In this document: positions 1 through 14,356 of the stretch, piece by piece
Layout of the letters: every line of letters starts with the position of its first letter
Numbering within the stretch: the first letter of the stretch is position 1
Virus record (IMG/VR): IMGVR_UViG_2541047931_000005
Location: 1 to 33,086 of that record
Strand: one strand, 5' to 3'
Length of the DNA stretch: 33,086 nucleotides
Source: a virus
Lineage: Duplodnaviria > Heunggongvirae > Uroviricota > Caudoviricetes
Position numbers and translations under genes: made by a program
Notes under the pieces: model-generated
The model's input: the letters and a program-made list of their open reading frames with translations, nothing else
The model's database searches: none
Told to the model about the DNA's origin: nothing

Positions 1-129
1 GGCTGCTACACCATGTTGCCGGGCAACGAGGGAGACCGTCATCCCCGGTTCAAAGCTCTGCTGAACAATTGCGATCTTTTCCTGTGTGGTACGCCGTCTG
101 CGTTTCTCCGGCCCTAAGACATCAATCAT
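1..129 (-). CDS. insC: IS2 transposase OrfA (InsC) N-terminal part, partial (runs off window)
   Basis: Minus-strand translation from ATG at 129-127: [43 protein letters not shown], the characteristic IS2 InsC N-terminus. Confidence 0.85.
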
Positions 130-220
130 CTGTTCTCCAATGACTAGTCTAAAAACTAGTATTAAGACTATCACTTATTTAAGTGATATTGGTTGTCTGG
201 AGATTCAGGGGGCCAGTCTA
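1..220 (-). mobile_element. IS2 (IS3 family) terminal segment, partial; element continues beyond window start
   Basis: Reverse complement of 1-220 matches the remembered IS2 left end (TAGACTGGCCCCCTGAATCTCCAGACAACC...) followed by the start of the IS2 orfA reading frame; boundary at 220. Confidence 0.85.
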
Positions 221-273
221 TGTTCCATTACATCCTGCGGATGCTCTTCGAACTCTTCAAATTCTTCTTCCAT
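221..273 (-). pseudogene. 5' fragment of an ORF (MEEEFEEFEEHPQDVMEH...) interrupted by the IS2 insertion
   Basis: ATG at 273 with upstream GGTGAG; the frame runs directly into the IS2 terminal repeat at 220. Confidence 0.4.
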
Positions 274-331
274 ATCTCACCTCAAATAAGTGGTTTGCTG
301 CCTAATTTCATTTTCTGGCGACCAACACAAG

Positions 332-715
332 TCACCTCGCCGTCAGTTGTTTTGATTTCCGGTAGCCTGCCGCGTAAATGGCTACGTTTGGAAGACATAC
401 ACCAGTTTCTGGTTGCTTATGTCCAAACTCATTCGCGTACACAATGGCCGCTCGCTCCAGATTGCGTCTGTATTCTTTCTGTTGCCAGATCACGTCCTGT
501 GCCATGAACTTAATTGGCTTAGCGTCTTCTATGCGCTCAGGCGTTTCGTGAGTACCTTTAGCCTGAATCTGTGCCCGACTGAGGGTAGGGCGATGAAGTT
601 TCTCTGAACTGATAACCTCTTCACGAGCTTCAACACCCTGTGCAATGGCTTGCGCCTTTAAACGTTCACGGCGACGAGCTGCTGATGAACCTTTGAAAGC
701 TGTTCTGCGTGTCAT
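332..715 (-). CDS. N: N-like transcription antiterminator (P22 gene 24 type)
   Basis: Arginine-rich motif SAARRRERLKAQ near the N-terminus and a C-terminus (YAAGYRKSKQLTAR) resembling P22 gp24; GGAGG RBS before ATG at 715; sits just downstream of pL/nutL. Confidence 0.75.
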   Translation of the reverse strand: MTRRTAFKGSSAARRRERLKAQAIAQGVEAREEVISSEKLHRPTLSRAQIQAKGTHETPERIEDAKPIKFMAQDVIWQQKEYRRNLERAAIVYANEFGHKQPETGVCLPNVAIYAAGYRKSKQLTAR

Positions 716-830
716 GGTGACCTCCTGATGAACTTTGGTGATGTGGGCGGTAACCAGCCGCACAAGTCAGGGCCATCTTCACGTTTTACCCTTTCTCGCT
801 TGCCACATCCCAAAGTTCACTTTGGTTATC

Positions 831-845
831 GCGCTTTGTCAGCGC
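831..845 (-). promoter_or_regulatory. nutL boxB hairpin (P22 type)
   Basis: Minus-strand RNA reads GCGCUGACAAAGCGC: 5-bp stem with a GACAA loop, between pL and N. Confidence 0.6.
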
Positions 846-915
846 CGTAGATTCATATTCGAATCGTTGTATATTCACCGACCTGGTGAGTAGTGCGTCC
901 TGCTGATGTGTTTAG

Positions 916-977
916 TATCACCGCTAGTGGTATTTATGTCAACACCGCTAGAGATAATTCATCACCGCAGATGGTTA
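916..977 (-). promoter_or_regulatory. OL operator triplet (OL1 916-932, OL2 941-957, OL3 961-977) overlapping the leftward promoter pL
   Basis: Three 17-bp sites TATCACCGCTAGTGGTA, CAACACCGCTAGAGATA, ATCACCGCAGATGGTTA matching the lambda cI operator consensus. Confidence 0.8.
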
Positions 978-1126
978 TCTGTATGTTTTTTATATGAATT
1001 TATTTTTTGCAGGGGTGCATTGTTTGGTAGGTGAGAGATCTGAATTGCTATGTTTAGTGAGTTGTATCTATTAATTTTCAAATAAATACAATTGGTTATG
1101 TGTTTTTTTGGGGGGGTTAGGCAAAG

Positions 1127-1153
1127 AAAACCCGGCGCTGAGGCCGGGTTCTT
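1127..1153 (-). terminator. Hairpin terminator downstream of the ParA-like gene
   Basis: CCCGGC-GCTGAG-GCCGGG stem-loop followed by a U-rich stretch on the minus strand, immediately after the stop at 1156. Confidence 0.55.
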
Positions 1154-1155
1154 GC

Positions 1156-2199
1156 TTAAAGAATACTTGCCAGATACTTAAGTTGTCTTTGATATCGAGT
1201 AACCGACTGGTTAACTTGTAACCTTTTCCCTTCACTTACTGTATGGAAGCGACCAACTTTTAGCTGTGATATTGGTATGCTTTCAGCCCCACTAATTTGC
1301 CCGCTTGATACAAAATCATCTGTAACCACAATTGCTTTGCTAACATCTTCATCGGCAAAGAGATGACTGTATTTTTCAGCGATTTTTACAGCTCTCTCTA
1401 TGTACATTTGAGATGCGCGACCTGGTGTTGATGATTTACGGCTTTTTGAACCAGCCATTGTCATTACGATCGCTGCTACTTTTGGAGCCCCAAGCCCACC
1501 CGCACGCTCATTCCATAATACAAAATCTTTTGATTTATTTGCCAGCATTTCCATTGTGAGATGAAGTGACTCAATTGAGTGTTCATCTACGCGTACAGGG
1601 ATAATCAATGCCTCAGACGCGCACCATGCTAGGTGTGTTCCTCCAGCATAGAAAGGGCTTGTATCCATCAATAAAATTTCGCATTTTTTGTCTTTCGCTT
1701 CATCGTTCATTATTGCGCGAAGAGAATTTAATAGTGTTGATACTGCTTTTGGTTCTCCGCGAGATAGCGCTACTTGTAGTTGTTGATACATGCTTGATGG
1801 GAAAGCGAATAGCTCAGGATCACCTGGAATCGCATAACATGCCTTACCACCTTTAAAATCTGGGCAGAAATTACTTACTCGATATGAAATATCTTCTGGC
1901 TGCTCACCAAAAGCTGGACCCAGCATTTTTGGTGTCAGTGCATTAGCTATTGTTACAACCGGTTTTTCACCACGCAATAGTGTCTCCGTTAAATTACATT
2001 GCGGGCATAAGTCAGCCACTAATACGGAGTTACGTCGTGACAGCTCATAGGCGAGGTTGAATGTCATCGTGGACTTACCAACACCACCGCGCAGATTGGA
2101 AACTGCATAACTTTTGAATTTTGGCCCGCCATCTACGACGTAACCTTCCTCAACAACTTGTGCATAGCGTGCCATTACTGACTCAACTACAGTGCTCAT
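1156..2199 (-). CDS. ParA/MinD/Soj-like P-loop ATPase with a C-terminal extension, function unknown (candidate accessory or exclusion gene)
   Basis: 347-aa ORF with deviant Walker A (LRGGVGKST), A'-like (VLVADLCPQCNLT) and Walker B-like (ILLMDTSP) motifs; AGGAGG RBS 7 nt before the ATG; AT-rich compared with its flanks. Confidence 0.85.
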   Translation of the reverse strand: MSTVVESVMARYAQVVEEGYVVDGGPKFKSYAVSNLRGGVGKSTMTFNLAYELSRRNSVLVADLCPQCNLTETLLRGEKPVVTIANALTPKMLGPAFGEQPEDISYRVSNFCPDFKGGKACYAIPGDPELFAFPSSMYQQLQVALSRGEPKAVSTLLNSLRAIMNDEAKDKKCEILLMDTSPFYAGGTHLAWCASEALIIPVRVDEHSIESLHLTMEMLANKSKDFVLWNERAGGLGAPKVAAIVMTMAGSKSRKSSTPGRASQMYIERAVKIAEKYSHLFADEDVSKAIVVTDDFVSSGQISGAESIPISQLKVGRFHTVSEGKRLQVNQSVTRYQRQLKYLASIL

Positions 2200-2225
2200 A
2201 TGAATTCCTCCTTTAAATTTTGAAT

Positions 2226-2254
2226 ATTAAAGCACCACAATGATGCAGGAGCAA
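2226..2254 (-). promoter_or_regulatory. Candidate sigma70 promoter for the ParA-like gene
   Basis: Minus strand: -35 TTGCTC, 17-bp spacer, TGn-extended -10 TTTAAT, about 25 nt upstream of the ATG at 2199. Sequence only. Confidence 0.35.
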
Positions 2255-2330
2255 TAAAAAAGCGCAGGAGAATGTAAAATTAGCAGGTGAATTAAAAATG
2301 CGCAGGAGATGTGATGTTTTGCAGGTTGAC
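2242..2330. repeat. Five phased direct repeats (core GCAGGAG/GCAGGTG/GCAGGTT, 18-20 bp period) each followed by an A/T tract
   Basis: GCAGG cores start at 2245, 2265, 2283, 2302 and 2321 on the plus strand, upstream of and overlapping the candidate promoter of the ParA-like gene. Confidence 0.6.
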
Positions 2331-2422
2331 TGAACAAATGCTGATGTATACCTCGTTTGTAGATAGGTATGTTAATTGCTATATAACATGCTTATGTTAT
2401 TGATATTTATATATATTAATCA

Positions 2423-2452
2423 TAAAAAAAGGCCGCACTTCTGTGCGACCTT
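2423..2452 (-). terminator. Intrinsic terminator immediately downstream of cI
   Basis: Minus strand GGUCGCAC-AGAA-GUGCGGCC hairpin followed by U7, beginning 5 nt after the cI stop codon. Confidence 0.65.
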
Positions 2453-2455
2453 TCA

Positions 2456-3172
<717 letters not shown>

Positions 3173-3179
3173 TTAAATC

Positions 3180-3245
3180 TATCACCGCAAGGGATAAACT
3201 TCTAACACCGTGCGTGTTGACTATTTTACCTCTAGCGGTGATAAT
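3180..3245. promoter_or_regulatory. OR3-OR2-OR1 operators with divergent pRM and pR
   Basis: OR3 TATCACCGCAAGGGATA (3180-3196), OR2 TAACACCGTGCGTGTTG (3203-3219), OR1 TACCTCTAGCGGTGATA (3227-3243); pR -35 TTGACT 3217-3222 and -10 GATAAT 3240-3245. Confidence 0.85.
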
Positions 3246-3269
3246 GATTACCTGTACTAAGGAGGTTGT

Positions 3270-3470
3270 ATGGAACAACGCATAACCCTGAAAGATTATG
3301 CAATACGCTTTGGGCAAACCAAGACGGCTAAAGATCTCGGCGTATATCAAAGCGCGATTAACAAGGCCATTCATGCAGGCCGAAAGATTTTTTTAACTAT
3401 AAACGCTGATGGAAGCGTTTATGCGGAAGAAATAAAGCCCTTCCCAAGTAACAAAAAAACAGCTGCATAA
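3270..3470 (+). CDS. cro: Cro repressor
   Basis: 66-aa [57 protein letters not shown]..., lambda Cro-like; AGGAGG RBS. Confidence 0.95.
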
Positions 3471-3508
3471 GTAACACCGTTCTTTTCACAATGGACATTC
3501 GTCCTACG

Positions 3509-3523
3509 TCGCTGACAAAGCGA
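3509..3523 (+). promoter_or_regulatory. nutR boxB hairpin
   Basis: UCGCUGACAAAGCGA stem-loop with the same GACAA loop as nutL, between cro and the cII-like gene. Confidence 0.5.
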
Positions 3524-3607
3524 GCCCCAAGATATCTGACCAACTAAGGCCATATGCGTTTCAACGCATACCTTTCAACTAACTATTCACTATTGGAAAA
3601 TTAACAA

Positions 3608-3904
3608 ATGACACAAGCAAGTTACAGCAAGCCAACACAGCGAGAAATTGATCGCGCAGAAACTGATTTACTCATCAACCTGTCAACGCTTACCCAGCGC
3701 GGTCTGGCAAAGATGATTGGCTGTCATGAATCGAAGATAAGCAGAACGGACTGGAGATTTATTGCTTCGGTCTTGTGTGCTTTCGGAATGGCATCAGACA
3801 TCAGTCCGATTAGCAGGGCTTTTAAGTATGCGCTTGATGAAATCACAAAGAAAAAATCCCCGGCCGCCACCGAGGATTTTAAGCAAATTGATATGCAATT
3901 CTGA
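3608..3904 (+). CDS. cII: CII-like transcriptional activator
   Basis: 98-aa ORF at the cII position; HTH-like core (SKISR) and a C-terminus [17 protein letters not shown] resembling lambda CII (KKRPAATERSEQIQMEF). Confidence 0.8.
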
Positions 3905-3936
3905 GGTCATTACTGGATCAATCCACAGGAGTAATT

Positions 3937-4083
3937 ATGACAAAACAACTCAGTCCTTACCAGGACAAAATTCACAAACACATACTACGTGATCGCTTCC
4001 TGTCCAGCTTCAAGCAGCCTGGTCGATTCCGGGCTGAGTTGGAAAAAGTGAAGCTGATGCAGAAGGAGAAAGGTCATGAGTAA
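3937..4083 (+). CDS. Small hypothetical protein (48 aa) between cII and the replication genes
   Basis: ATG at 3937 preceded by CAGGAG; stop overlaps the start of the O-like gene; below the 60-aa cutoff of the ORF track. Confidence 0.35.
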
Positions 4084-4936
4084 TCTTGCAACCGTAACAC
4101 ATTTAAGGCCTTCACAACGGCCTGTGGAGCGTCGTGTGGCAGAAGTTGAAGATGGTTATACCCGTCTTGCAAATGCCCTGTATGAAGAGCTTATCGGCGC
4201 AGATTTAACAAAAAATCAGAGTAAGGTTGCCCACGCCATATGCCGTAAAACATACGGATACGGTAAAAAGATGGATCGCATCTCTGATAGTCAGTTAGCT
4301 CAAATTACCAGGCTGCCAAGACAGAAGGTAAACAAGGCCAAGAATGAGCTTATCGCGATGAAGGTAATCCTTCGCGAAGGCCAGCAAATCGGGCCTAACA
4401 AGAACATCGAGGAATGGCAAATCGAAGGGTGTCACTACTCTGGTGATAATGTCACTGCATTGGTGACAAAAAGTGTCACCAAAACGGTGACAGCGCTGTC
4501 ACCAAAACAGGGACACACAAAAGAAACTATTACAAAAGAAAAAAGAAATAATAAAAACACTATGTCCGAAAGTGTTCGGACGGAGTGTGAAAAATCATCT
4601 GACCGTCACGAAGAAACCGACAAGGCATTCGAGGAAATATTCTGGTGTGCAGGCATGCGGAAAGCCGGGAAAAAAAACGCAGCTTCGGCATTCAGAACAC
4701 AGTTCAGGGAATGGCGTAAAACTACCAGGGGTACGGCAAGCGAGTTTGCCACGATGCTGGCAGAAGACATCGCATGCAGGAATGGTAAGCAGTTCGGATT
4801 CGACAGGTTGTTACCATCGAGCTACTTGAACGGTCAGCGCTGGAACGACGAAAAGCCAGAAACCATTCAACCACAATCCAAACCATCATCCGCAATCACC
4901 GTATCGAAAACTGGCTACGTGTTTTTCGACAGGTGA
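4076..4936 (+). CDS. Replication initiator with a lambda O-like N-terminal domain
   Basis: N-terminal similarity to lambda O ([26 protein letters not shown]...[15 protein letters not shown]...GPNKNI); ori-like iterons lie inside the gene. Confidence 0.85.
4451..4560. other. Putative replication origin: three 18-bp imperfect-palindrome iterons at a 23-bp period, then an A/T-rich tract
   Basis: GTCACTGCATTGGTGACA (4451), GTCACCAAAACGGTGACA (4474), GTCACCAAAACAGGGACA (4497), followed by an A-rich block 4515-4560, all inside the O-like gene as in lambda ori. Confidence 0.65.
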
Positions 4937-4939
4937 ACC

Positions 4940-5047
4940 ATGAAATCAAAAATCAAATCGCTACTGGTCGCTGGTTATAACCACGGCTGGTTAAGTATTT
5001 CGTTTGTCGATTTCTGGTTTAAAAATCTCAATCTGAGGGAATCATGA
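4940..5047 (+). CDS. Possible small ORF (35 aa) between the initiator and primase-helicase genes
   Basis: ATG at 4940 four nt after the O-like stop; its stop overlaps the primase-helicase start (ATGA). No recognisable family. Confidence 0.2.
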   Translation: MKSKIKSLLVAGYNHGWLSISFVDFWFKNLNLRES

Positions 5048-6924
5048 GGCCAAGTGAACTTAGCGACCTGCTTTGGGCGCAGGTTGACAGGGTGGCTCCG
5101 CACCTGTTGCCAAATGGCAAGAAAGAGGGGCATGAGTGGGTTGCCGGTAACGTCAACGGTGACAAGGGAAACAGCCTTAAGGTCAACCTTAGCGGCAAGA
5201 AAAAATGGGCTGATTTCGCTGAGGGAGACGGCGGTGACATGCTTGATTTGTGGATGGCATGTCGTGGAATTAACCTGCATCAGGCTATGCAGGAAGCGAA
5301 AGCATTTCTCGGTATCAAGGATGACGATCACCATTTCGATGCCAGACGTGAGAAGAAATTCTCCAGACCTGATCGCAAGAAAATCGCCCGCTACGTTACC
5401 AGAACAGAATCCCATCTTGAGTACCTGCAATCGCGTGGCATATCGCCAGAAGTCGTAAAGCGCTACGAGGTTGTCAGCGGCAAGGTGTGGAATGGAGAAC
5501 GAGAACTGGATGCTCTGGTGCTTCCGTACAAACGCGATGGTGAGTTGTTGCAGGTCAAGCGAATCAGCACTGAGCGCCCGGACGGGAAGAAAGTCATTAT
5601 GGCAGAAGGTGATTGCGAACCTTGTCTGTTCGGATGGCAGGCTCTGGACGCTGGCGTGAGGGCGGTTGTGCTTTGCGAAGGCGAAATTGATTGTATGAGC
5701 TATGCGCAATACGGCATCTCGGCATTATCCGTGCCGTTTGGTGGAGGGAAAGGCGCTAAGCAACAGTGGATTGAGTTTGAGTATCACAACCTCGACAGGT
5801 TTGAGGAAATATTCATCTCGATGGACGTTGATGATGTTGGTCGTGAAGCCGCAAGGGAAATCGCAAGCCGACTCGGTGAACATCGTTGCCGTCTTGTTAC
5901 TCTGCCGTACAAAGACATCAACGAATGCCTGATGAACGGTGTTACCGATGATGAAATCTGGCAGTACATCGGCACGGCATCCTACTTCGATCCTGAAGAA
6001 CTCTACAGCGCGCGAGAGTTTTACCAGGACACTATCAACGCTTTCTACGGCAAGCAGCAGTATCTGTTTAATCCACCGTGGGAATCTCTGGCAGATAAAT
6101 TCCAGTTCCGTGAGGCCGAGTTGACGCTGGTCAATGGTGTGAACGGTCACGGAAAAACGGAGGTTGTCGGGCATATGGCACTTGAGGCAATGCGTCAGGG
6201 TGTGAAGACGTGCATCGCGTCACTTGAGCTGAAGCCAGGCATTCTCCTTAAGCGACTTACCCGTCAGGCGACGTGCTGCAAGATGCCGCCAGTGCTGGAA
6301 ATTGACTCTGCATTTAAATTTTATGACGAAAGACTTTGGGTGTTTGGCCTGACCGGAACGGCGAAAGCCGACAGGCTGATCGAAATATTCGACTACGCTC
6401 GCCGCCGATACGGCATCCAGTTATTCATCATCGACAGCCTGATGAAATGTGGCATAGGCGACGATGACTATAACGGGCAGAAGGCGTTTGTTGACTCGAT
6501 TTGCGACTTCAAAAACAAAACAAACTCCCACGTCATTCTCGTTACTCACTCGCGAAAAGGAGACAGCGAAGAAAAACCAACCGGGAAAATGGACGTAAAA
6601 GGCTCTGGAGCGATAACAGACCTGACAGACAACCTTTTTATCATCTGGCGTAACAAGGCTCGCGAGAGAGCGTTACAGAGAGTTCAGAGTGGTGAAAAGA
6701 TGTCAGAGAAGGACGAACAGCTACTGGCGTCTCCTGCATCTGTTTTGATGCTTGAAAAACAACGTAACGGCGAAGGTTGGGAAGGTGGTGTCCCGTTGTT
6801 CCTTGACGAGCAATCGCACCAGTTCCTGCAACTTGAATCAGGATCGCCATATAGCTACATCGCCAATATGCCGAAATCGGAATATGACGAGGCGTGGCGA
6901 CAGGAAAACGTGACGGAGTATTAA
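5044..6924 (+). CDS. Bifunctional DNA primase (Toprim) / DnaB-like replicative helicase
   Basis: 626 aa; Toprim-like VVLCEGEIDCMSYAQYG in the N-terminal half; Walker A GVNGHGKTE and Walker B LFIIDSL in the C-terminal half. Confidence 0.85.
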   Translation: MRPSELSDLLWAQVDRVAPHLLPNGKKEGHEWVAGNVNGDKGNSLKVNLSGKKKWADFAEGDGGDMLDLWMACRGINLHQAMQEAKAFLGIKDDDHHFDARREKKFSRPDRKKIARYVTRTESHLEYLQSRGISPEVVKRYEVVSGKVWNGERELDALVLPYKRDGELLQVKRISTERPDGKKVIMAEGDCEPCLFGWQALDAGVRAVVLCEGEIDCMSYAQYGISALSVPFGGGKGAKQQWIEFEYHNLDRFEEIFISMDVDDVGREAAREIASRLGEHRCRLVTLPYKDINECLMNGVTDDEIWQYIGTASYFDPEELYSAREFYQDTINAFYGKQQYLFNPPWESLADKFQFREAELTLVNGVNGHGKTEVVGHMALEAMRQGVKTCIASLELKPGILLKRLTRQATCCKMPPVLEIDSAFKFYDERLWVFGLTGTAKADRLIEIFDYARRRYGIQLFIIDSLMKCGIGDDDYNGQKAFVDSICDFKNKTNSHVILVTHSRKGDSEEKPTGKMDVKGSGAITDLTDNLFIIWRNKARERALQRVQSGEKMSEKDEQLLASPASVLMLEKQRNGEGWEGGVPLFLDEQSHQFLQLESGSPYSYIANMPKSEYDEAWRQENVTEY

Positions 6925-7017
6925 ATGACCATCTACATCACTGAGTTAATAGCAGGCCTGCTGGTAATCGCAGGCCTTTTTATTTGGTGGAGAGTAATTG
7001 GAGGATTTAAGAAATGA
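6925..7017 (+). CDS. Possible small hydrophobic peptide (30 aa, single predicted TM helix)
   Basis: MTIYITELIAGLLVIAGLFIWWRVIGGFKK; its start abuts the helicase stop and its stop overlaps the next ATG. Confidence 0.3.
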   Translation: MTIYITELIAGLLVIAGLFIWWRVIGGFKK

Positions 7018-7229
7018 GTACGATAGCTGAGCTTGTCAGGGCTAATTTTCGTGAAGAGTTGGTGCGTTGGTATCGGTATCGTTCATCGTCAAGTTTGCCG
7101 CTTGATGAGTTGTATGAGCATTCACCAGCCGCACGACGCTATCCGCGTGACCGTGTTCTTCGGCGGTTGTTCAGACTCAACAATGAGTTTCAGCGCAACA
7201 GAATTATCCGGAGTCTGGATTTAAAGTGA
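7014..7229 (+). CDS. Hypothetical arginine-rich protein (71 aa), nin-region
   Basis: ORF with GGAGG RBS and tight coupling to neighbours; no family recognised. Confidence 0.5.
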   Translation: MSTIAELVRANFREELVRWYRYRSSSSLPLDELYEHSPAARRYPRDRVLRRLFRLNNEFQRNRIIRSLDLK

Positions 7230-7233
7230 AGGA

Positions 7234-7476
7234 GTGAGCATGAGCGACCTATCATTAACCCAGCCAAAGCTAAAAGAATGTCCGTTTTGCGGCGGTAATG
7301 CTCGTCTGTGGGTTGAGGCCGGAATAAATATTGATGTGTGGGGCTATGCAGAATGTGACCTCTGTGAAGCCAGGGGGGCATGGGCACCATCAGTTGCTGC
7401 GGCGGCTGAAAAATGGAACCGGAGAGCAGGAGATGAAGCAAACCTTTCTGCTTCGCAACGAAGCAATCAGAAATAA
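7234..7476 (+). CDS. Lar-family restriction-alleviation-like zinc-ribbon protein
   Basis: 80 aa with CPFCGG...ECDLCEARG...AAEKWNRR, the double CxxC arrangement and WNRR tail recalled for Lar-family proteins. Confidence 0.55.
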   Translation: MSMSDLSLTQPKLKECPFCGGNARLWVEAGINIDVWGYAECDLCEARGAWAPSVAAAAEKWNRRAGDEANLSASQRSNQK

Positions 7477-7753
7477 CGCCATAGACGCCATTCTCTCACT
7501 ACCCATCGACGACAAGTCACCCCACGAAGTCCACGTTAAAGAACCCAAGCGCAGCAAAGCGCAGAATGACCGTATGTGGCCGATGCTGAACGATGTTTCG
7601 CGTCAGGTGCTATGGCATGGTCAACGGCTGGCACCGGAAGACTGGAAAGACCTGTTCACTGCCTTGTGGCTTAAGACCAAAAAAATGGAGCAAAGAAGTG
7701 CGCGGCAGAGAATGCCAGGTACGTATTTACGGCGTATGCAATGGAAATCCTGA
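7433..7753 (+). CDS. ninB: NinB-like protein, apparently C-terminally truncated or altered
   Basis: MKQTF...QNDRMWPMLNDVSRQVLWHGQRLAPEDWKDLFTA resembles lambda NinB for about 80 residues, then diverges; overlaps the next ORF out of frame. Confidence 0.55.
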   Translation: MKQTFLLRNEAIRNNAIDAILSLPIDDKSPHEVHVKEPKRSKAQNDRMWPMLNDVSRQVLWHGQRLAPEDWKDLFTALWLKTKKMEQRSARQRMPGTYLRRMQWKS

Positions 7754-7967
7754 AACTACAGTTCTGGCACATTACCGGATGGCTGGAATTTGCGGAACTG
7801 GAATGAAGCCTGACGACCTGATCGGTGCATGGGCTTGTAGTGACTGCCACGCGGAGATCGACCGACGCACAAGGATTCTCGACAACAAAGACGCCAGACT
7901 TTACCACCTCGAAGGCGTGATCAGGACGCAGGCGATACTGCTGAAGGAGGGGAAGATTAAGTCATGA
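7593..7967 (+). CDS. DUF1364 / YbcO-like protein (putative nuclease); true start uncertain
   Basis: C-terminal about 95 residues (RECQVRIYGVCNGNPETTVLAHYRMAGICGTGMKPDDLIGAWACSDCHAEIDRRT...) resemble E. coli DLP12 YbcO; the upstream frame overlaps the NinB-like ORF. Confidence 0.6.
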   Translation: MFRVRCYGMVNGWHRKTGKTCSLPCGLRPKKWSKEVRGRECQVRIYGVCNGNPETTVLAHYRMAGICGTGMKPDDLIGAWACSDCHAEIDRRTRILDNKDARLYHLEGVIRTQAILLKEGKIKS

Positions 7968-8326
7968 ACGAATATCAGTTTGTGCTTCCATACCCGCCGT
8001 CGGTGAACACCTACTGGCGAAGACGGGGAAGCCAATACTACATCAGCGATAAAGGAGAGAAATACCGAAAAGACGTTCAGCAAATCATCCGCCAACTCAA
8101 GTTAGACATTTTCACTAAATCACGACTCCGCATCAAAGTCATCGCAGACGTTCCAGACTCCCGCCGCCGCGACCTCGATAACATCCTGAAAGGTTTACTC
8201 GACTCCCTTATCCACGCCGGATTTGCGGAAGACGACGAGCAATTCGATGACATTCGCGTAATTCGTGGTGTGAAAGTACCAGGCGGAAGGCTTGGAATAA
8301 AAATCACCAAACTGGAGAACGTATGA
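7964..8326 (+). CDS. rusA: RusA Holliday-junction resolvase
   Basis: 120 aa; VLPYPPSVNTYWRRRG...RRRDLDNILKGLLDSLIHAGF...GGRL, the RusA family pattern. Confidence 0.9.
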   Translation: MNEYQFVLPYPPSVNTYWRRRGSQYYISDKGEKYRKDVQQIIRQLKLDIFTKSRLRIKVIADVPDSRRRDLDNILKGLLDSLIHAGFAEDDEQFDDIRVIRGVKVPGGRLGIKITKLENV

Positions 8327-8511
8327 ACGCCACAATTCAAACGATACCAGAGCTTCTTATCCAGACACGAGGCAATCAGACCGAAGTGGCGAGGATGCTT
8401 TCCTGCGCAAGAGGAACGGTGCTCAAGTACAACCGAGACAGCAAAGGCGAACGTCACGTAATAGTTAACGGCGTCCTGATGGTCAAACAGGGCAAGAGGG
8501 GAAGACGATGA
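8323..8511 (+). CDS. ninH: NinH-like protein
   Basis: 62 aa; IQTIPELLIQTRGNQTEVARMLSCARGTVLKY resembles lambda NinH. Confidence 0.75.
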   Translation: MNATIQTIPELLIQTRGNQTEVARMLSCARGTVLKYNRDSKGERHVIVNGVLMVKQGKRGRR

Positions 8512-9131
8512 GACTCGAAAGCGTAGCTAAATTTCATTCGCCAAAAAGCCCGATGATGAGCGACTCACCACGGGCCACGGCTTCTGACTCTCTTTCCGGT
8601 ACTGATGTGATGGCTGCTATGGGGATGGCGCAATCACAAGCCGGATTCGGAATGGCTGCATTCTGCGGTAAGCATGAACTCAGCCAGAACGACAAACAAA
8701 AGGCTATCAACTATCTGATGCAATTTGCACACAAGGTATCGGGGAAATACCGTGGTGTGGCAAAGCTTGAAGGAAATACTAAGGCAAAGGTACTGCAAGT
8801 GCTCGCAACATTCGCTTATGCGGATTATTGCCGTAGTGCCGCGACGCCGGGCGCAAGATGCAGAGATTGCCACGGTACAGGCCGTGCGGTTGATATAGCC
8901 AAAACAGAGCTGTGGGGGAGAGTTGTTGAGAAAGAATGCGGAAGATGCAAAGGTGTCGGCTATTCAAGAATGCCAGCAAGTGCAGCATATCGCGCTGTGA
9001 CGATGCTAATCCCAAACCTTACCCAACCCACCTGGTCACGCACTGTTAAGCCGCTGCATGACGCTCTGGTGGTGCAATGCCACAAGGAAGAGTCAATCGC
9101 AGACAATATTTTGAATGCGGTCACACGTTAG
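8508..9131 (+). CDS. Q: Late-gene antiterminator Q (lambda type)
   Basis: 207 aa, essentially colinear with lambda Q as remembered (MRLESVAKFHSPKSPMMSDSPRATASDS ... CRDCHGTGRAVD ... CGRCKGVGY). Confidence 0.95.
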   Translation: MRLESVAKFHSPKSPMMSDSPRATASDSLSGTDVMAAMGMAQSQAGFGMAAFCGKHELSQNDKQKAINYLMQFAHKVSGKYRGVAKLEGNTKAKVLQVLATFAYADYCRSAATPGARCRDCHGTGRAVDIAKTELWGRVVEKECGRCKGVGYSRMPASAAYRAVTMLIPNLTQPTWSRTVKPLHDALVVQCHKEESIADNILNAVTR

Positions 9132-9173
9132 CAGCATGATTGCCACGGATGGCAACATATTAACGGCATGATA

Positions 9174-9203
9174 TTGACTTTTTGAATAAAATTGGGTAAA
9201 TTT
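9174..9203 (+). promoter_or_regulatory. Late promoter pR' (-35 TTGACT, -10 TAAATT), qut region
   Basis: TTGACT at 9174-9179 and TAAATT at 9198-9203, directly downstream of Q, matching the lambda pR' arrangement. Confidence 0.6.
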
Positions 9204-9237
9204 GACTCAACGATGGATAAATGCACTCGTTAAATAA

Positions 9238-9267
9238 AGCCCTGAGTTAATAGCTCGGGGCTTTTTG
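9238..9267 (+). terminator. tR'-like intrinsic terminator
   Basis: AGCCCUGAG...CUCGGGGCU hairpin followed by UUUUU, about 55 nt downstream of the predicted pR' start. Confidence 0.6.
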
Positions 9268-9687
9268 CGTTACAATCACAAAGGGAAGAGCGTTAGGTGA
9301 ATCGGCGATACTGCCCCATAAGCCCGTTAATCGATAGAGGTAGACTAGCGCTCTTCCTTTTGTGCTGAATTAAGCGAATGCCGGAAGCAGAACCGGATCA
9401 CCAAATGCGAACAGGCGTCATCGCCGCCCAGCAACAGCACAACCCAAACTGAGCCGTAGCCACTGGCTATCCTGAATTCATCAGTGATAGTTATGCTGCG
9501 GCCTTCTACACATGACCTTCGTGAAAGCGGGTGGCAAGAGGTTGCGCTAACAACCTCCTGCCGTTTTGCCCGTGCATATCGGTCACGAACAAATCTGATT
9601 ACTAAACACAGTAGCCTGGATTTGTTCTATCAGTAATCGACCTTATTCCTAATTAAATAGAGCAAATCCCCTTATTGGGGGTAAGAC

Positions 9688-10011
9688 ATGAAGATGCCAG
9701 AAAAACATGACCTGTTAGCCGCGATTCTCGCGGCAAAGGAACAAGGCATCGGGGCAATCCTTGCGTTTGCAATGGCGTACCTTCGCGGCAGATATAATGG
9801 CGGTGCGTTTACAAAAACAGTAATCGACGCAACGATGTGCGCCATTATCGCCTGGTTCATTCGTGACCTTCTCGACTTCGCCGGACTAAGTAGCAATCTC
9901 GCTTATATAACGAGCGTGTTCATCGGCTACATCGGTACTGACTCGATTGGTTCGCTTATCAAACGCTTCGCGGCTAAAAAAGCCGGAGTAGAAGATGGTG
10001 GAAATCAATAA
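9688..10011 (+). CDS. S: Holin S (class I, dual-start MKM motif)
   Basis: 107 aa, lambda S-like ([34 protein letters not shown]...). Confidence 0.95.
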
Positions 10012-10471
10012 TCAACGTAAGGCGTTCCTCGATATGCTGGCGTGGTCAGAGGGAACTGATAACGGACGTCAGAAAACCAGAAATCATGGTTATGACGTCA
10101 TTGTTGGCGGAGAGCTATTCACTGATTACTCCGATCACCCTCGCAAACTTGTCACGCTAAACCCCAAACTCAAATCAACAGCCGCCGGACGTTACCAGCT
10201 TCTTTCCCGTTGGTGGGATGCCTACCGTAAGCAGCTTGGCCTGAAAGATTTCTCTCCGAAAAGTCAGGACGCTGTGGCATTGCAGCAGATTAAAGAGCGT
10301 GGCGCTTTACCGATGATTGATCGCGGTGATATCCGTCAGGCAATCGACCGTTGCAGCAATATCTGGGCTTCGTTGCCGGGGGCTGGTTATGGCCAGTTCG
10401 AGCATAAGGCTGACAGCCTGATTGCAAAATTCAAAGAAGCTGGCGGAACAGTCAGAGAGATTGAGGTATGA
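9995..10471 (+). CDS. R: Endolysin R (lytic transglycosylase)
   Basis: 158 aa, lambda R-like ([39 protein letters not shown]...). Confidence 0.95.
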
Positions 10472-10935
10472 GCAGAGTAACCGCGATTATCTCCGCTCTG
10501 GTTATCTGCATCATCGTCTGCCTGTCATGGGCTGTTAATCATTACCGTGATAACGCCATCGCCTACAAAGAACAGCGCGATAAAAAAGTCAGTGAGCTGA
10601 AGCAGGCGACCGCCACCATTACTGACATGCAGCAGCGCCAGCGTGATGCTGATGCACTTGATGCTAAATACACGAAGGAGTTAGCTGATGCGAAAGCTGA
10701 AAATGATGCTCTTCGGCGGAAGCTTGATAATGGTGGCAGGGTGCTCGTCAAAGGAAAATGCCCTGTGCCATCCTCAGCCGAAACCTCCAGCGCCTCCGGC
10801 ATGGGCAATGATGCCACCGTCGAACTCTCTCCAGTTGCTGGACGAAACGTTCTCGGTGTCCGGGACGGAATTATCCGCGACCAAACAGCACTGAGAACGC
10901 TTCAGGAATACATCAGGACGCAATGCCTTCGATGA
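10468..10935 (+). CDS. Rz: Spanin inner-membrane subunit Rz
   Basis: 155 aa with N-terminal TM segment and coiled-coil region; N-terminal half lambda Rz-like, C-terminal part divergent. Confidence 0.85.
10688..10894 (+). CDS. Rz1: Spanin outer-membrane lipoprotein Rz1, embedded in Rz in the +1 frame
   Basis: [21 protein letters not shown]... with lipobox VAGC and a proline-rich segment, wholly inside Rz. Confidence 0.7.
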
Positions 10936-11109
10936 TAGCGATAATTTTACTCATCATCCTTCACATCTGGCTCTGTAGACAGGGTGGTGATCACTTCTGG
11001 AGTGAATCCAGATTAAACATCTCATTGCTGATGCTTGAAGTTGAGCATCTGGCGCGCAGTAAGGGGCTGCGTTGAGATAAGAGCCAGTTCATTACAAACA
11101 CCAGGATTT

Positions 11110-11136
11110 AGCCTCGCATTCGCGGGGCTTTTTTAT
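11110..11136 (+). terminator. Hairpin terminator downstream of the lysis cassette
   Basis: AGCCUCGC-AUUC-GCGGGGCU hairpin followed by UUUUUUAU. Confidence 0.5.
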
Positions 11137-11281
11137 ATCTGCAACAAACGCGCTTCACACGCGCGACTTCTGAACACAGAACCTTTCAGGATGACCCTTG
11201 AGGATGCCGGTTTGGTGATCGGTGCCTTTCTGTGGGCCGGAATCCTGTGTGACAAGGTTCATCACTAAAAGGTAACCACTG

Positions 11282-11812
11282 ATGAAGTACCCAACAGTTA
11301 TTGTCAATGGTGTGTCCGTTCGTGTTGATGAGGATGGACGCTACAACTTAAACGATCTCCATGCAGCAGCAGTTGCAAATGGAGAGGCTACAGAGCAACA
11401 GCGCCCAAGCCAGTTTTTGCGTAGCGCGCAGATAAAACGCTTCATAAAAGCACTGGAGGCCAAAGTGCAAAAAAGCACTTTGGAACAAATTCAACCACTT
11501 AAAATAATCAAAGGTGGTGCGGAACCAGGTGTGTGGGGTGTTGAACTTCTGGCAATCAGATATGCAGCATGGATTAAGCCGGAATTTGAAATCGAAGTTT
11601 ATGAAGTTTTCAAAACGGTTGTCCGTCTCGGCGTTGGCGCAATGTCCCGTCTGAATAGAATCGATCACATCATCAATACTGAAACCAAAGCGATAAGCCA
11701 GTGCGCAAGCCAAATGGCTAAGTGGGGCGTTGGTGGGCGAAAAAGATTGCTTCATGTTGCACGTGAGAGAGCGGCAAATGAAGTGCAAATGTATTTGCCC
11801 GGAATGGTGTGA
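11282..11812 (+). CDS. KilA-N domain protein
   Basis: 176 aa; N-terminus VIVNGVSVRVDEDGRYNLNDLHAAA typical of KilA-N/APSES-type domains. Confidence 0.7.
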   Translation: MKYPTVIVNGVSVRVDEDGRYNLNDLHAAAVANGEATEQQRPSQFLRSAQIKRFIKALEAKVQKSTLEQIQPLKIIKGGAEPGVWGVELLAIRYAAWIKPEFEIEVYEVFKTVVRLGVGAMSRLNRIDHIINTETKAISQCASQMAKWGVGGRKRLLHVARERAANEVQMYLPGMV

Positions 11813-12068
11813 TTTCGCAGGTTAATCCAGTTTGTACATTACGGCAGTACCACGAAGCGACCCAAGCCAGTAAGTGGGGAAATAACACTGGCAGCCACTG
11901 AAAGATGAACCTCCTGCCTTATGGCAAAAAAGATTCTTTGTGGTGGCGGACTGATGGAAAGACATCGGTTATTGCAGAGACCATTCAATGAGTGGTCTCG
12001 ACAATGGCTTATACCCTACACGGGATAACTTAACTGATATCCCTTTTAACGGATAAACGGAGCCAACA

Positions 12069-12311
12069 ATGGCAGAGATTATTCCCATGACTGAAGAACA
12101 GAAATTCCAGCTAGAGATTTACAAACTGGTCATGAACCAGAACGCAGCCGCAGAAGAAGCATTTCAGTTCATTGGCACTGACGAGCTGAAGCTTGAGCTA
12201 TTCAAAATTCACTTCCAGTCAGGCGGCGCTAATTCAGATATCACGACCCGCACAATCGAAGCGGTGCGTAAATCGAAGGAAGCGTTAGACCTGTTCACCA
12301 CCGGAGCATAA
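12069..12311 (+). CDS. Hypothetical protein (80 aa) upstream of terminase genes
   Basis: ORF with GGAG RBS, at the position where P22-like phages carry small ORFs before gene 3. Confidence 0.5.
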   Translation: MAEIIPMTEEQKFQLEIYKLVMNQNAAAEEAFQFIGTDELKLELFKIHFQSGGANSDITTRTIEAVRKSKEALDLFTTGA

Positions 12312-12390
12312 ACATGGCAACTCAAGGTTTCGACAACCCATCCAAATTCCGCGATGAATGGGATAAGCAAGCAGAAGGGAAATAATCAAT

Positions 12391-12879
12391 ATGGCAGCAC
12401 CAAAGGGCAACCGATTTTGGGAGGCCCGCAGTAGTCATGGGCGAAATCCTAAATTCGAATCGCCTGAGGCGCTGTGGGCTGCTTGTTGTGAATACTTCGA
12501 GTGGGCTGATGATAACCCGCTATGGGAGGGTAAGGTATTTTCATATCAGGGAGAAATAATTAAGGCTAATGTCCCTAAGATGCGAGCCATGACTATTTCA
12601 GGATTGTGTACCTTCCTTGATATCACCAGGCAAACATGGGGAACCTTCCGGTCAATGGAAGGTTTTTCTGACGTCACATCACGAGCGGAAGACATCATCT
12701 ACGACCAGAAATTCTCTGGCGCAGCCGCTGACCTTCTCAACGCTAACATCATCGCCCGTGATTTGGGCCTCAAAGAGCAGTCGCAAGTTGAAGACGTGAC
12801 ACCTGATAAGGGAGATCGCGATAAGCGGCGCTCTCGTATCAAGGAGCTATTCAACCGTGGAACTGGACGCGATTCTTGA
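12391..12879 (+). CDS. Terminase small subunit (P22 gp3-like)
   Basis: 162 aa; [38 protein letters not shown] motif; size and position match P22 gene 3. Confidence 0.85.
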
Positions 12880-14356
12880 TAACTTGAGCGACGAAGAGCA
12901 AATCGAATTGCTCGAGCTACTCGAAGAAGAAGAGAACTACCGGAACACACACCTGCTATATGAATTTACGCCATACAGCAAACAGCGTGAGTTCATCGAC
13001 GCCGGGCATGACTATCCAGAGCGCTGTTTTATGGCTGGTAACCAGCTTGGTAAGTCATTTACTGGTGCTGCTGAAGTCGCGTTTCACCTTACCGGGCGTT
13101 ATCCGGGCACAAAAGGCTATCCTGCTGATGGTAAATATGGCGGTGAGTGGAAAGGTAAGCGTTTCTATGAGCCTGTTGTCTTCTGGATTGGCGGCGAGAC
13201 AAACGAGACGGTAACCAAAACGACTCAACGCATCCTGTGCGGTCGTATTGAAGAGAATGATGAGCCGGGCTACGGTTCAATACCGAAAGAGGACATCATT
13301 AGCTGGAAGAAGTCTCCTTTCTTTCCGAACCTTGTTGATCATCTTCTGGTTAAGCATCACACGGCTGATGGCGTTGAAGATGGCATTTCAATCTGCTACT
13401 TCAAACCATACTCGCAAGGCCGCGCTCGCTGGCAGGGTGACACAATCCATGGCGTGTGGTTTGACGAAGAGCCGCCATACAGCATTTATGGCGAAGGGCT
13501 TACCCGTACCAACAAATACGGGCAATTCTCAATTCTGACGTTTACCCCGCTGATGGGGATGTCTGACGTTGTTACCAAGTTCCTGAAGAATCCCAGCAAG
13601 TCGCAGAAAGTGGTCAACATGACCATCTATGACGCTGAGCACTACACCGACGAGCAGAAAGAGCAAATCATCGCATCCTATCCTGAGCATGAGAGAGAGG
13701 CGCGTGCTCGCGGTATTCCTACGATGGGTAGTGGTCGAATCTTCCAGATACCGGAAGAGACGATTAAGTGTCAGCCGTTCGAGTGTCCTGATCACTTCTA
13801 CGTAATTGGCGGGATGGATTTCGGATGGGATCACCCACAGGCGCAGGTTCAGCTTTGGTGGGATAAGGACGCAGACATAATCTACCTTTCACGCGTTTGG
13901 AAGGCGAAAGAAAAGACAGCCGTTCAGGCGTGGGGAGCTGTTAAACCATGGGCGCATAAAGTGCCAACCGCATGGCCTCATGACGGAAACCAGCACGAGA
14001 AGGGCGGCGGTGAGCAGCTCAAAGGGCAGTATGCGGACGCTGGATTTATGATGTTGCAGGAGCATGCGACATGGCCTGATGGCGGTAACGCTGTTGAGCC
14101 TGGCATCACTGAATTGCGAGACATGATGCTCGACGGTCGCTTCAAAGTATTCAACACCTGTGAGCCATTCTTTGAGGAGTTCCGCCTCTATCACCGTGAT
14201 GAAAACGGGAAAATCGTCAAGCTTAACGATGACGTTCTCTCCGCCGTTCGCTATGCATACATGATGCGCCGCTTCGCAAAAATGATGCGCGACATCAAAA
14301 AACCAAAAGAGAAAAAGATACCAGCCCCAATCAGGCCAATCGCACGGAGAACTTAA
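12857..14356 (+). CDS. Terminase large subunit (P22 gp2-like)
   Basis: 499 aa, same length as P22 gp2; Walker A-like GNQLGKSF; overlaps the terS 3' end. Confidence 0.95.

Follow-up and report, generated by a model that had tools for sequence, protein, structure and literature searches.

In the nin region of an E. coli prophage, a NinB-like open reading frame runs out of frame into a gene of the DUF1364/YbcO family close to a run of seven adenines (A7). This arrangement raises the question of how the two genes came to lie next to each other in different frames, and whether either of them still yields a functional product. A preliminary description of the locus had proposed a nin-region deletion that removed the 3′ part of ninB, together with an additional 1-nt indel at the A7 tract, leaving one or both genes disrupted or expressed from an upstream alternative start. 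Here, the locus was analyzed in the context of the whole 33,086-nt stretch of DNA, referred to as the window, to which all coordinates apply unless a different locus is named.

Gene layout and structure of the joint

The window represents a P22-like (Lederbergvirus-type) prophage with an HK97-like nin module. Positions 1433-13753 showed 100% identity to scaffold KE702254.1 of E. coli UMEA 3271-1 (84165-96485), and the nearest isolated phages were APC_JM3.2, HZ41, and IME10. The closest of these, APC_JM3.2, was rejected as a comparator for the joint; its nin module is unrelated and of the ninG type. The segment 7200-8330 is part of the early-right operon, in which genes encoding a primase/helicase (5044-6924), a 30-aa hydrophobic ORF (6925-7017), DUF7301 (7014-7229), and Lar (7240-7476) precede the truncated NinB/Orf gene, here called ninB′ (7433-7753, plus strand; 106 codons plus TGA). 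The DUF1364/YbcO His-Me-finger gene, here called ybcO′, occupies 7698-7967 on the plus strand and encodes 89 aa if started at a GTG; the longest ORF in its frame, +1 relative to ninB′, extends from 7593 to 7967 (plus strand, 124 aa). Its stop codon overlaps the start of an intact gene for the Holliday-junction resolvase RusA (ATGA; rusA at 7964-8326, plus strand, identified by Pfam RusA), in the order of HK97 gp66-gp67. Downstream follow ninH (8323-8511), Q (8508-9131), and, after 9131, lysis genes and then P22-type structural genes.

Some further features of this region were noted. Lar and ninB′ overlap by 44 nt (7433-7476) in different frames; since the intact relatives L001 and L020 share this overlap, it is native and not part of the scar. 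Two promoter-like sites are located at 9174-9202 and 9247-9276, where pR′ would be expected. The window contains no tRNA genes, while tRNA-Asn and tRNA-Thr genes are found between Q and the holin gene of the relative L001.

In BLAST searches of the region (5426 complete E. coli genomes; 50,697 phage records), all ninB matches ended at 7703 and all DUF1364 matches (HK97 gp66, HK022, HK620, and others) began at 7690. This pattern was shared by the matching records, which numbered more than 1200 from E. coli and 190 from phages. In a three-way alignment with the intact locus of the E. coli SY3626 prophage (L004), the window agreed with intact ninB alleles without mismatch through 7703, and with the DUF1364 gene from 7690 on with a single mismatch at T7699 (C in DUF1364 genes). 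The stretch common to both parents (7690-7703, plus strand; GCAAAGAAGTGCGC in the window) reads GCAAAGAAG[T/C]GCGC, is identical at 13 of 14 positions, and corresponds to ninB codons 86-90 and DUF1364 codons 5-9. Because the window matches ninB through 7703 but mismatches DUF1364 at T7699, the exchange is confined by this alignment to GCGC at 7700-7703, and the crossover is placed inside this tetranucleotide, 15-18 nt downstream of the A7 tract. Comparison with intact ninB and ybcO homologs, which the preliminary description had suggested as a check, thus bore out the deletion, with its breakpoint at 7700-7703, and showed no indel.

The intact L004 locus comprises ninB, an N6-adenine methyltransferase gene, ninE, ninF, the roi/KilAC antirepressor gene, the DUF1364 gene, rusA, ninH, and Q, which is the gene order of HK97 gp61-gp69; it was found in HK97 and in four E. 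coli prophages. As had been proposed, the 3′ part of ninB is gone, and alignment to intact loci showed that the loss continues as far as the 5′ end of the DUF1364 gene. Relative to L004, 1787 bp are absent (remainder 2 on division by 3), with both this length and the deleted content inferred from HK97-type relatives, as no direct parent with both flanks identical was found in the collections. A parent resembling phage S9-5 would imply a smaller loss of roughly 0.9 kb, estimated from match spans. Direct pairs with at least 13 of 14 identical positions were rare in the intact 2.9-kb nin region (three, compared with 0.8 ± 0.9 in shuffles). The joint is located at one of these three, as predicted by short-homology illegitimate recombination.

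The reading that we prefer, with a probability of about 0.9, is that a microhomology-mediated deletion joined ninB codon 90 to DUF1364 codon 9 in the +1 frame, with no further mutation. In a lambdoid/P22-like E. coli prophage, illegitimate short-homology recombination would have occurred across the imperfect direct repeat in the nin region. From ninB, it would have removed the last 58 codons, and from the DUF1364 gene the ribosome-binding site (RBS), the ATG, and codons 1-8. All genes between the two would also have been lost, namely those for the methyltransferase, NinE, NinF, and Roi if the parent was of the HK97 type. Mechanistically, the event may have been replication slippage or a recombinase-assisted exchange between two genomes. 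Lytic growth does not require the nin-region genes, which presumably explains why the deletion was tolerated. Perhaps the DUF1364 gene was rescued by a GGAG-N7-GTG motif that ninB happened to supply.

Occurrence of the joint and coding capacity of the two genes

No joint-spanning record was found by BLAST with a 201-nt junction query in the 5426 complete E. coli genomes or the 50,697 phage records, and this first suggested that the joint was a singleton. An exact-protein look-up led us to reject this notion: in the assembly collection, 53 indexed blocks contained the identical 106-aa NinB′, which was recorded on about 29 contigs (ERB30462.1 and others), and the 89-aa GTG-started product ERB30463.1 was found on 27 contigs. 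Searches with exact and degenerate junction patterns gave no hit in the one-genome-per-species collection or in IMG/VR, and one contig in the metagenome collection. As a sequence tag for carriers, we propose the 32-mer ATGGAGCAAAGAAGTGCGCGGCAGAGAATGCC.

Of the ten carrier loci retrieved, three came from NCBI draft genomes, three from ENA metagenome assemblies, and four from Logan runs. All ten were 99.7-100% identical to the window over 6925-9131 (2.2 kb), without any difference between 7014 and 8158. Their flanks differed: a NUMOD4/HNH_3 gene is situated before the primase gene in L007, L009, L010, L011, and L016, L013 has a different Q and holin, and L014 an Sf6-type terminase. The same joint was present on the metagenome contig L005 (ERZ857629) at approximately 1% divergence (~99% identity). 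We also looked for homologs that combine the same overlap with full-length proteins, which the preliminary description had named as counterevidence; all loci with this overlap carried the identical truncated joint.

Two side observations concern these loci. The NUMOD4/HNH_3 gene, encoding a homing-endonuclease-like protein of 163 aa, represents a presence/absence polymorphism directly 5′ of the primase/helicase gene (window ~5047-5056; L007 3124-3615) and is absent from the window, L008, L012, and L013. L005, the only carrier diverged by ~1%, displayed two gaps, one of 7 nt in Lar (window 7273-7279) and one of 13 nt where DUF7301 starts (7014-7026); at a coverage of only 2.3x, these gaps may be errors or further decay.

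NinB′ consists of 90 native residues followed by residues 91-106 (RQRMPGTYLRRMQWKS), which by translation correspond to ybcO read in the wrong frame. Its DNA was 97-99% identical to annotated ninB genes. The protein scored 103.2 bits against Pfam NinB (PF05772; cut-off 23.8) over profile positions 1-90 of 131 and matched lambda Orf (PDB 1PC6) over residues 2-78 (E = 1.9e-14), consistent with the early end of NinB similarity reported in the preliminary description. NinB′ is hence a homolog of the NinB family with an incomplete domain (~146-148 aa when complete); intact ninB alleles encode 148 aa, 58 of which are absent here. In lambda Orf, Arg103 presumably lies past residue 90 and falls in the deleted part. 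The Arg103/Val106 motif and the C-terminal helix contribute to DNA binding by Orf, and R103E was the mutant most defective in this activity (Curtis et al. 2014, PMC4118853). Truncated before these elements, NinB′ is very likely inactive.

The suggestion of one or both genes being disrupted holds for ninB; the DUF1364 gene is truncated at its 5′ end with its in-frame core kept. It lost its own ATG, a strong RBS, and codons 1-8, and retained codons 9-96, covering positions 8-91 of 92 in Pfam YbcO (PF07102; 137.6 bits, cut-off 29.9) with 97% identity to 96-aa homologs. The longer ORF at 7593-7967 covered Pfam YbcO positions 4-91 of 92 and matched PDB 3G27 (E = 2.5e-34). In an alignment of 60 sequences that included the window protein, all 24 invariant columns were kept in the ybcO′ product. 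The kept core includes C13, C21, N22, H32, C54, C57, and H58 (96-aa numbering), and thereby the Cys/His ligands and the His-Me histidine. Lost were L4 and A8, which are at least 90% conserved in the family. DUF1364 proteins are almost uniformly 94-96 aa long with a conserved N-terminus (M-x-N-L-R-K-E-A); ybcO′ shares the homology and invariant core of this family but is short of full length and of an ATG and RBS of its own. AlphaFold models a 96-aa homolog (pLDDT 90) with only a short helix, residues 5-8, in the lost segment. Nuclease activity of the DUF1364/YbcO family has been predicted from its fold (PMC4999995, PMC5714182).

The best candidate start for the truncated gene could be the GTG at 7698-7700, preceded by GGAG at 7687-7690 with a 7-nt spacer (7687-7700, plus strand). 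This site is wholly derived from ninB, with T7699 being ninB-specific. Its calculated anti-Shine-Dalgarno (SD) duplex amounts to -5.6 kcal/mol, compared with -6.6 for the start of ninB itself, -6.4 for ninH, and -11.2 for native gp66. The GTG is located within the translated ninB′ frame, 53 nt before the ninB′ stop, at the base of a small hairpin; the native DUF1364 start was coupled to the roi stop. Two in-frame ATGs further upstream (7593 and 7617) were rejected as poorer starts, with SD duplexes calculated at only -1.5 and -3.8 kcal/mol and more structure around them. Contrary to the upstream alternative start considered in the preliminary description, the GTG in situ is the better candidate, and several gene callers chose it: the 89-aa product is annotated in L009, L011, L012, L013, L015, and L016 as well as in ERB30463.1. 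In L007, L010, and L014, no gene was annotated at ybcO′.

Whether this start sustains a functional gene is finely balanced. We see about even chances that a functional 89-aa DUF1364 product with an intact predicted His-Me finger core is translated from the GTG at a reduced level. A serious alternative, which we rate as plausible though below even odds, is that both genes are dead, with ninB′ and ybcO′ persisting as untranslated or unstable pseudogene remnants and rusA and the following genes being expressed without them. It would fit the disappearance of the native RBS, ATG, and roi stop-start coupling, the weakness of the replacement SD next to that of gp66, the use of GTG inside a translated frame, the loss of the conserved L4 and A8, and the three annotations without a gene. 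Against it speak the canonical geometry of GGAG-N7-GTG, with a strength similar to that of the ninB start, and the retention of all invariant catalytic and zinc residues. The 88 native codons also form an open frame in all carriers, but the intactness of this ORF is uninformative because the carriers are too young. Likewise, the carriers are too uniform to show selection: the ten loci, a set that was picked for identical NinB′, had 0 substitutions at 7014-8158.

Frame offset at the A7 tract and inheritance of the joint

The A7 tract (7679-7685, plus strand) is followed by an ATG at 7685-7687 (plus strand), as had been reported. Both belong to ninB, where they form the codons Lys83-Lys84-Met85. 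YbcO similarity had been described as beginning in the +1 frame immediately after this ATG; the frame is indeed +1, but the ATG is NinB codon 85, and the homology starts at 7690. The frame offset itself follows from the microhomology, which is read as G-CAA-AGA-AGT-GCG-C (Q R S A) in ninB and as C-AAA-GAA-GCG-CGC (K E A R) in the DUF1364 gene. Because it sits in different codon registers of the two parent genes, the joint is +1 out of frame, and no 1-nt indel is needed, whatever the deleted content.

These observations bear directly on the indel invoked in the preliminary description, according to which the nin deletion was accompanied by a separate 1-nt change at A7, either a mutation or a homopolymer sequencing error, that destroyed a clean ybcO start codon. 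Homopolymers are prone to indels, and the run with its ATG at 7685-7687 directly precedes the change of frame. However, the intact 148-aa ninB genes of four complete E. coli genomes (L004, L017, L018, and L019) read ...CCAAAAAAATGGAGCAAAGAAGTGCGC... exactly like the window, with an identical A7-ATGGAGCAAAGAAGTGCGC and, specifically, A7 followed by ATGGAG, and identity to ninB continues for 18 nt beyond A7, to 7703. Other ninB alleles (L001 and L020) read A6C at this site, giving CTG (Leu): AAAAAACTGG. This comparison of alleles identifies the A7 tract and its ATG at 7685 as native features of one ninB allele and not as the site of an indel.

Nor did the supposed clean start, ATGAGCAAAGAAGTG with the translation MSKEVRGRECQ, agree with the family: genuine DUF1364 genes begin with MANLRKEARGRECQ or ATGGCTAACCTACGCAAAGAAGCG (MANLRKEA), and a ATGAGCAAAGAAGTG or MSKEV start had no counterpart among 668 homologs. 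The native start is preceded by GGGGAGG (GGGGAGG-N7-ATG) and overlaps the roi stop; its ATG, 13 nt upstream of the start of homology, is gone from the window. With the register of the microhomology accounting fully for the offset, and with the sequence being identical in at least ten independent assemblies, we regard an additional indel as very improbable.

An equally slim chance was given to recoding, in which a +1 ribosomal slip, or the loss of one A from the transcript, on A7 would fuse NinB residues 1-84 to the DUF1364 nuclease. The ybcO frame lies exactly +1 of ninB′ at an AAA-AAA-A run, natural proteins with an Orf-like N-terminus and an HNH C-terminus (DUF968) exist (PMC4118853), and DUF1364 groups with DUF968 among the His-Me fingers (PMC5714182). 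If true, recoding at A7 would yield a newly born fusion nuclease made by deletion and mimicking the Orf-HNH (DUF968) architecture. Yet A7 also occurs in intact ninB alleles that have no downstream +1 ORF partner and allow no fusion, and it was therefore not selected for recoding; the pattern expected of a programmed frameshift or slippage site was not seen. No stimulatory element (upstream SD, rare A-site codon) was evident at the tract, the Orf fragment would be without 40% of the fold, and no called database protein spans both parts. In addition, appreciable slippage in E. coli is known from runs longer than A7.

The chance that the joint is an assembly chimera or sequencing artefact, with reads mis-joined at a short repeat and the true nin region being intact, is negligible: a 14-nt repeat could in principle be collapsed by assemblers, and the complete E. 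coli genomes and deposited phages contained no spanning record, but 14 nt is far below assembler k-mer sizes, and the identical joint was recovered from NCBI isolate drafts, ENA metagenome assemblies, and Logan assemblies of unrelated runs, on high-coverage contigs (e.g. cov 86.8 in ERZ15610136), and within different mosaic flanks.

Since the same joint is found in at least ten independent assemblies and in several mosaic backgrounds, it is inherited. The allele is genuine, rare, and of recent origin, and it has entered these different backgrounds.

For annotation, this means that ninB should be listed as a truncated, pseudogene-like remnant and the DUF1364 gene as 5′-truncated with a possible GTG restart, without a homopolymer error. 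Beyond annotation, the feature has little significance. It does offer a clean and datable microhomology-mediated novel joint inside coding sequence, persisting and spreading among P22-like E. coli prophages, and the carriers are natural variants without ninB, the methyltransferase gene, ninE, ninF, and roi that could be used as controls when nin-region function is studied. The chance RBS and start codon supplied by upstream coding sequence would, if used, illustrate how a deletion can rescue a downstream gene.

Comparison with known systems

Outside the deletion, the gene order is that of HK97, HK022, and HK620 (gp61 ninB, gp62, gp63, gp64, roi, gp66, gp67 rusA, gp68 ninH, Q). The right arm (7690-8330) is 97% identical to HK97 gp66-gp68, and the ninB of the left arm is of the same family as that of HK97. 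The genes separating ninB codon 90 from gp66 codon 9 in HK97 are absent from the window, which, unlike HK97, has a P22-like left flank (primase/helicase, DUF7301, and Lar) and P22-like structural genes.

A different scar was noted in L001 (E. coli O114:H49 90-9280), where a 3′-truncated NinE pseudogene lies beside a 5′-truncated DUF1364 pseudogene (2667-2960). Judging from this second arrangement, internal nin deletions that hit the DUF1364 gene appear to recur independently.

The lambdoid nin region is variable, as illustrated by the nin deletions of lambda (e.g. nin5). Classical nin deletions are defined by the loss of tR2-type terminators, which results in N-independence. Similar to these, the deletion described here affects an otherwise complete genome and is internal to the dispensable block that separates the replication genes from Q. 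It differs from the nin5 type in that it starts inside ninB and not upstream, and in that the only strong, intrinsic-terminator-like hairpin, upstream of the nin genes (6954-6977, plus strand), is kept. In the intact L004, this hairpin occupies 2239-2262. A simple consensus scan, which is blind to Rho-dependent or weak terminators, detected only chance-level weak sites in the deleted interval of L004 and lent no support to a nin5-like loss of terminators. As a separate observation, the hairpin (AGGCCTGC...GCAGGCCT followed by a T-run) is located inside the 30-aa hydrophobic ORF at 6925-7017, and four clustered substitutions just 5′ of its stem (6946-6952) split the carrier loci into two groups.

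Illegitimate recombination at short homologies generates the novel joints of mosaic phage genomes. Random events of this kind are expected inside coding sequence and survive only where the genes are dispensable. A homology of 14 nt is shorter than those known to be used in exchange by Rad52-like recombinases. Relaxed recombination is a topic of PMC3945230. The joint in the window resembles such novel joints in its position inside coding sequences and at a 14-nt repeat that is among the best in the region.

The locus also shares with the Orf-HNH fusions of the DUF968/YdfU type the succession of an Orf segment and a DUF1364-related His-Me finger, in the same order. In contrast to these fusions, the two parts are in different frames, Orf is cut at residue 90, and no ORF spans both, and the resemblance is coincidental to the deletion. 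Compared with these systems, the feature is an ordinary deletion scar, possibly with a rescued downstream gene, and a further case of a familiar type of event.
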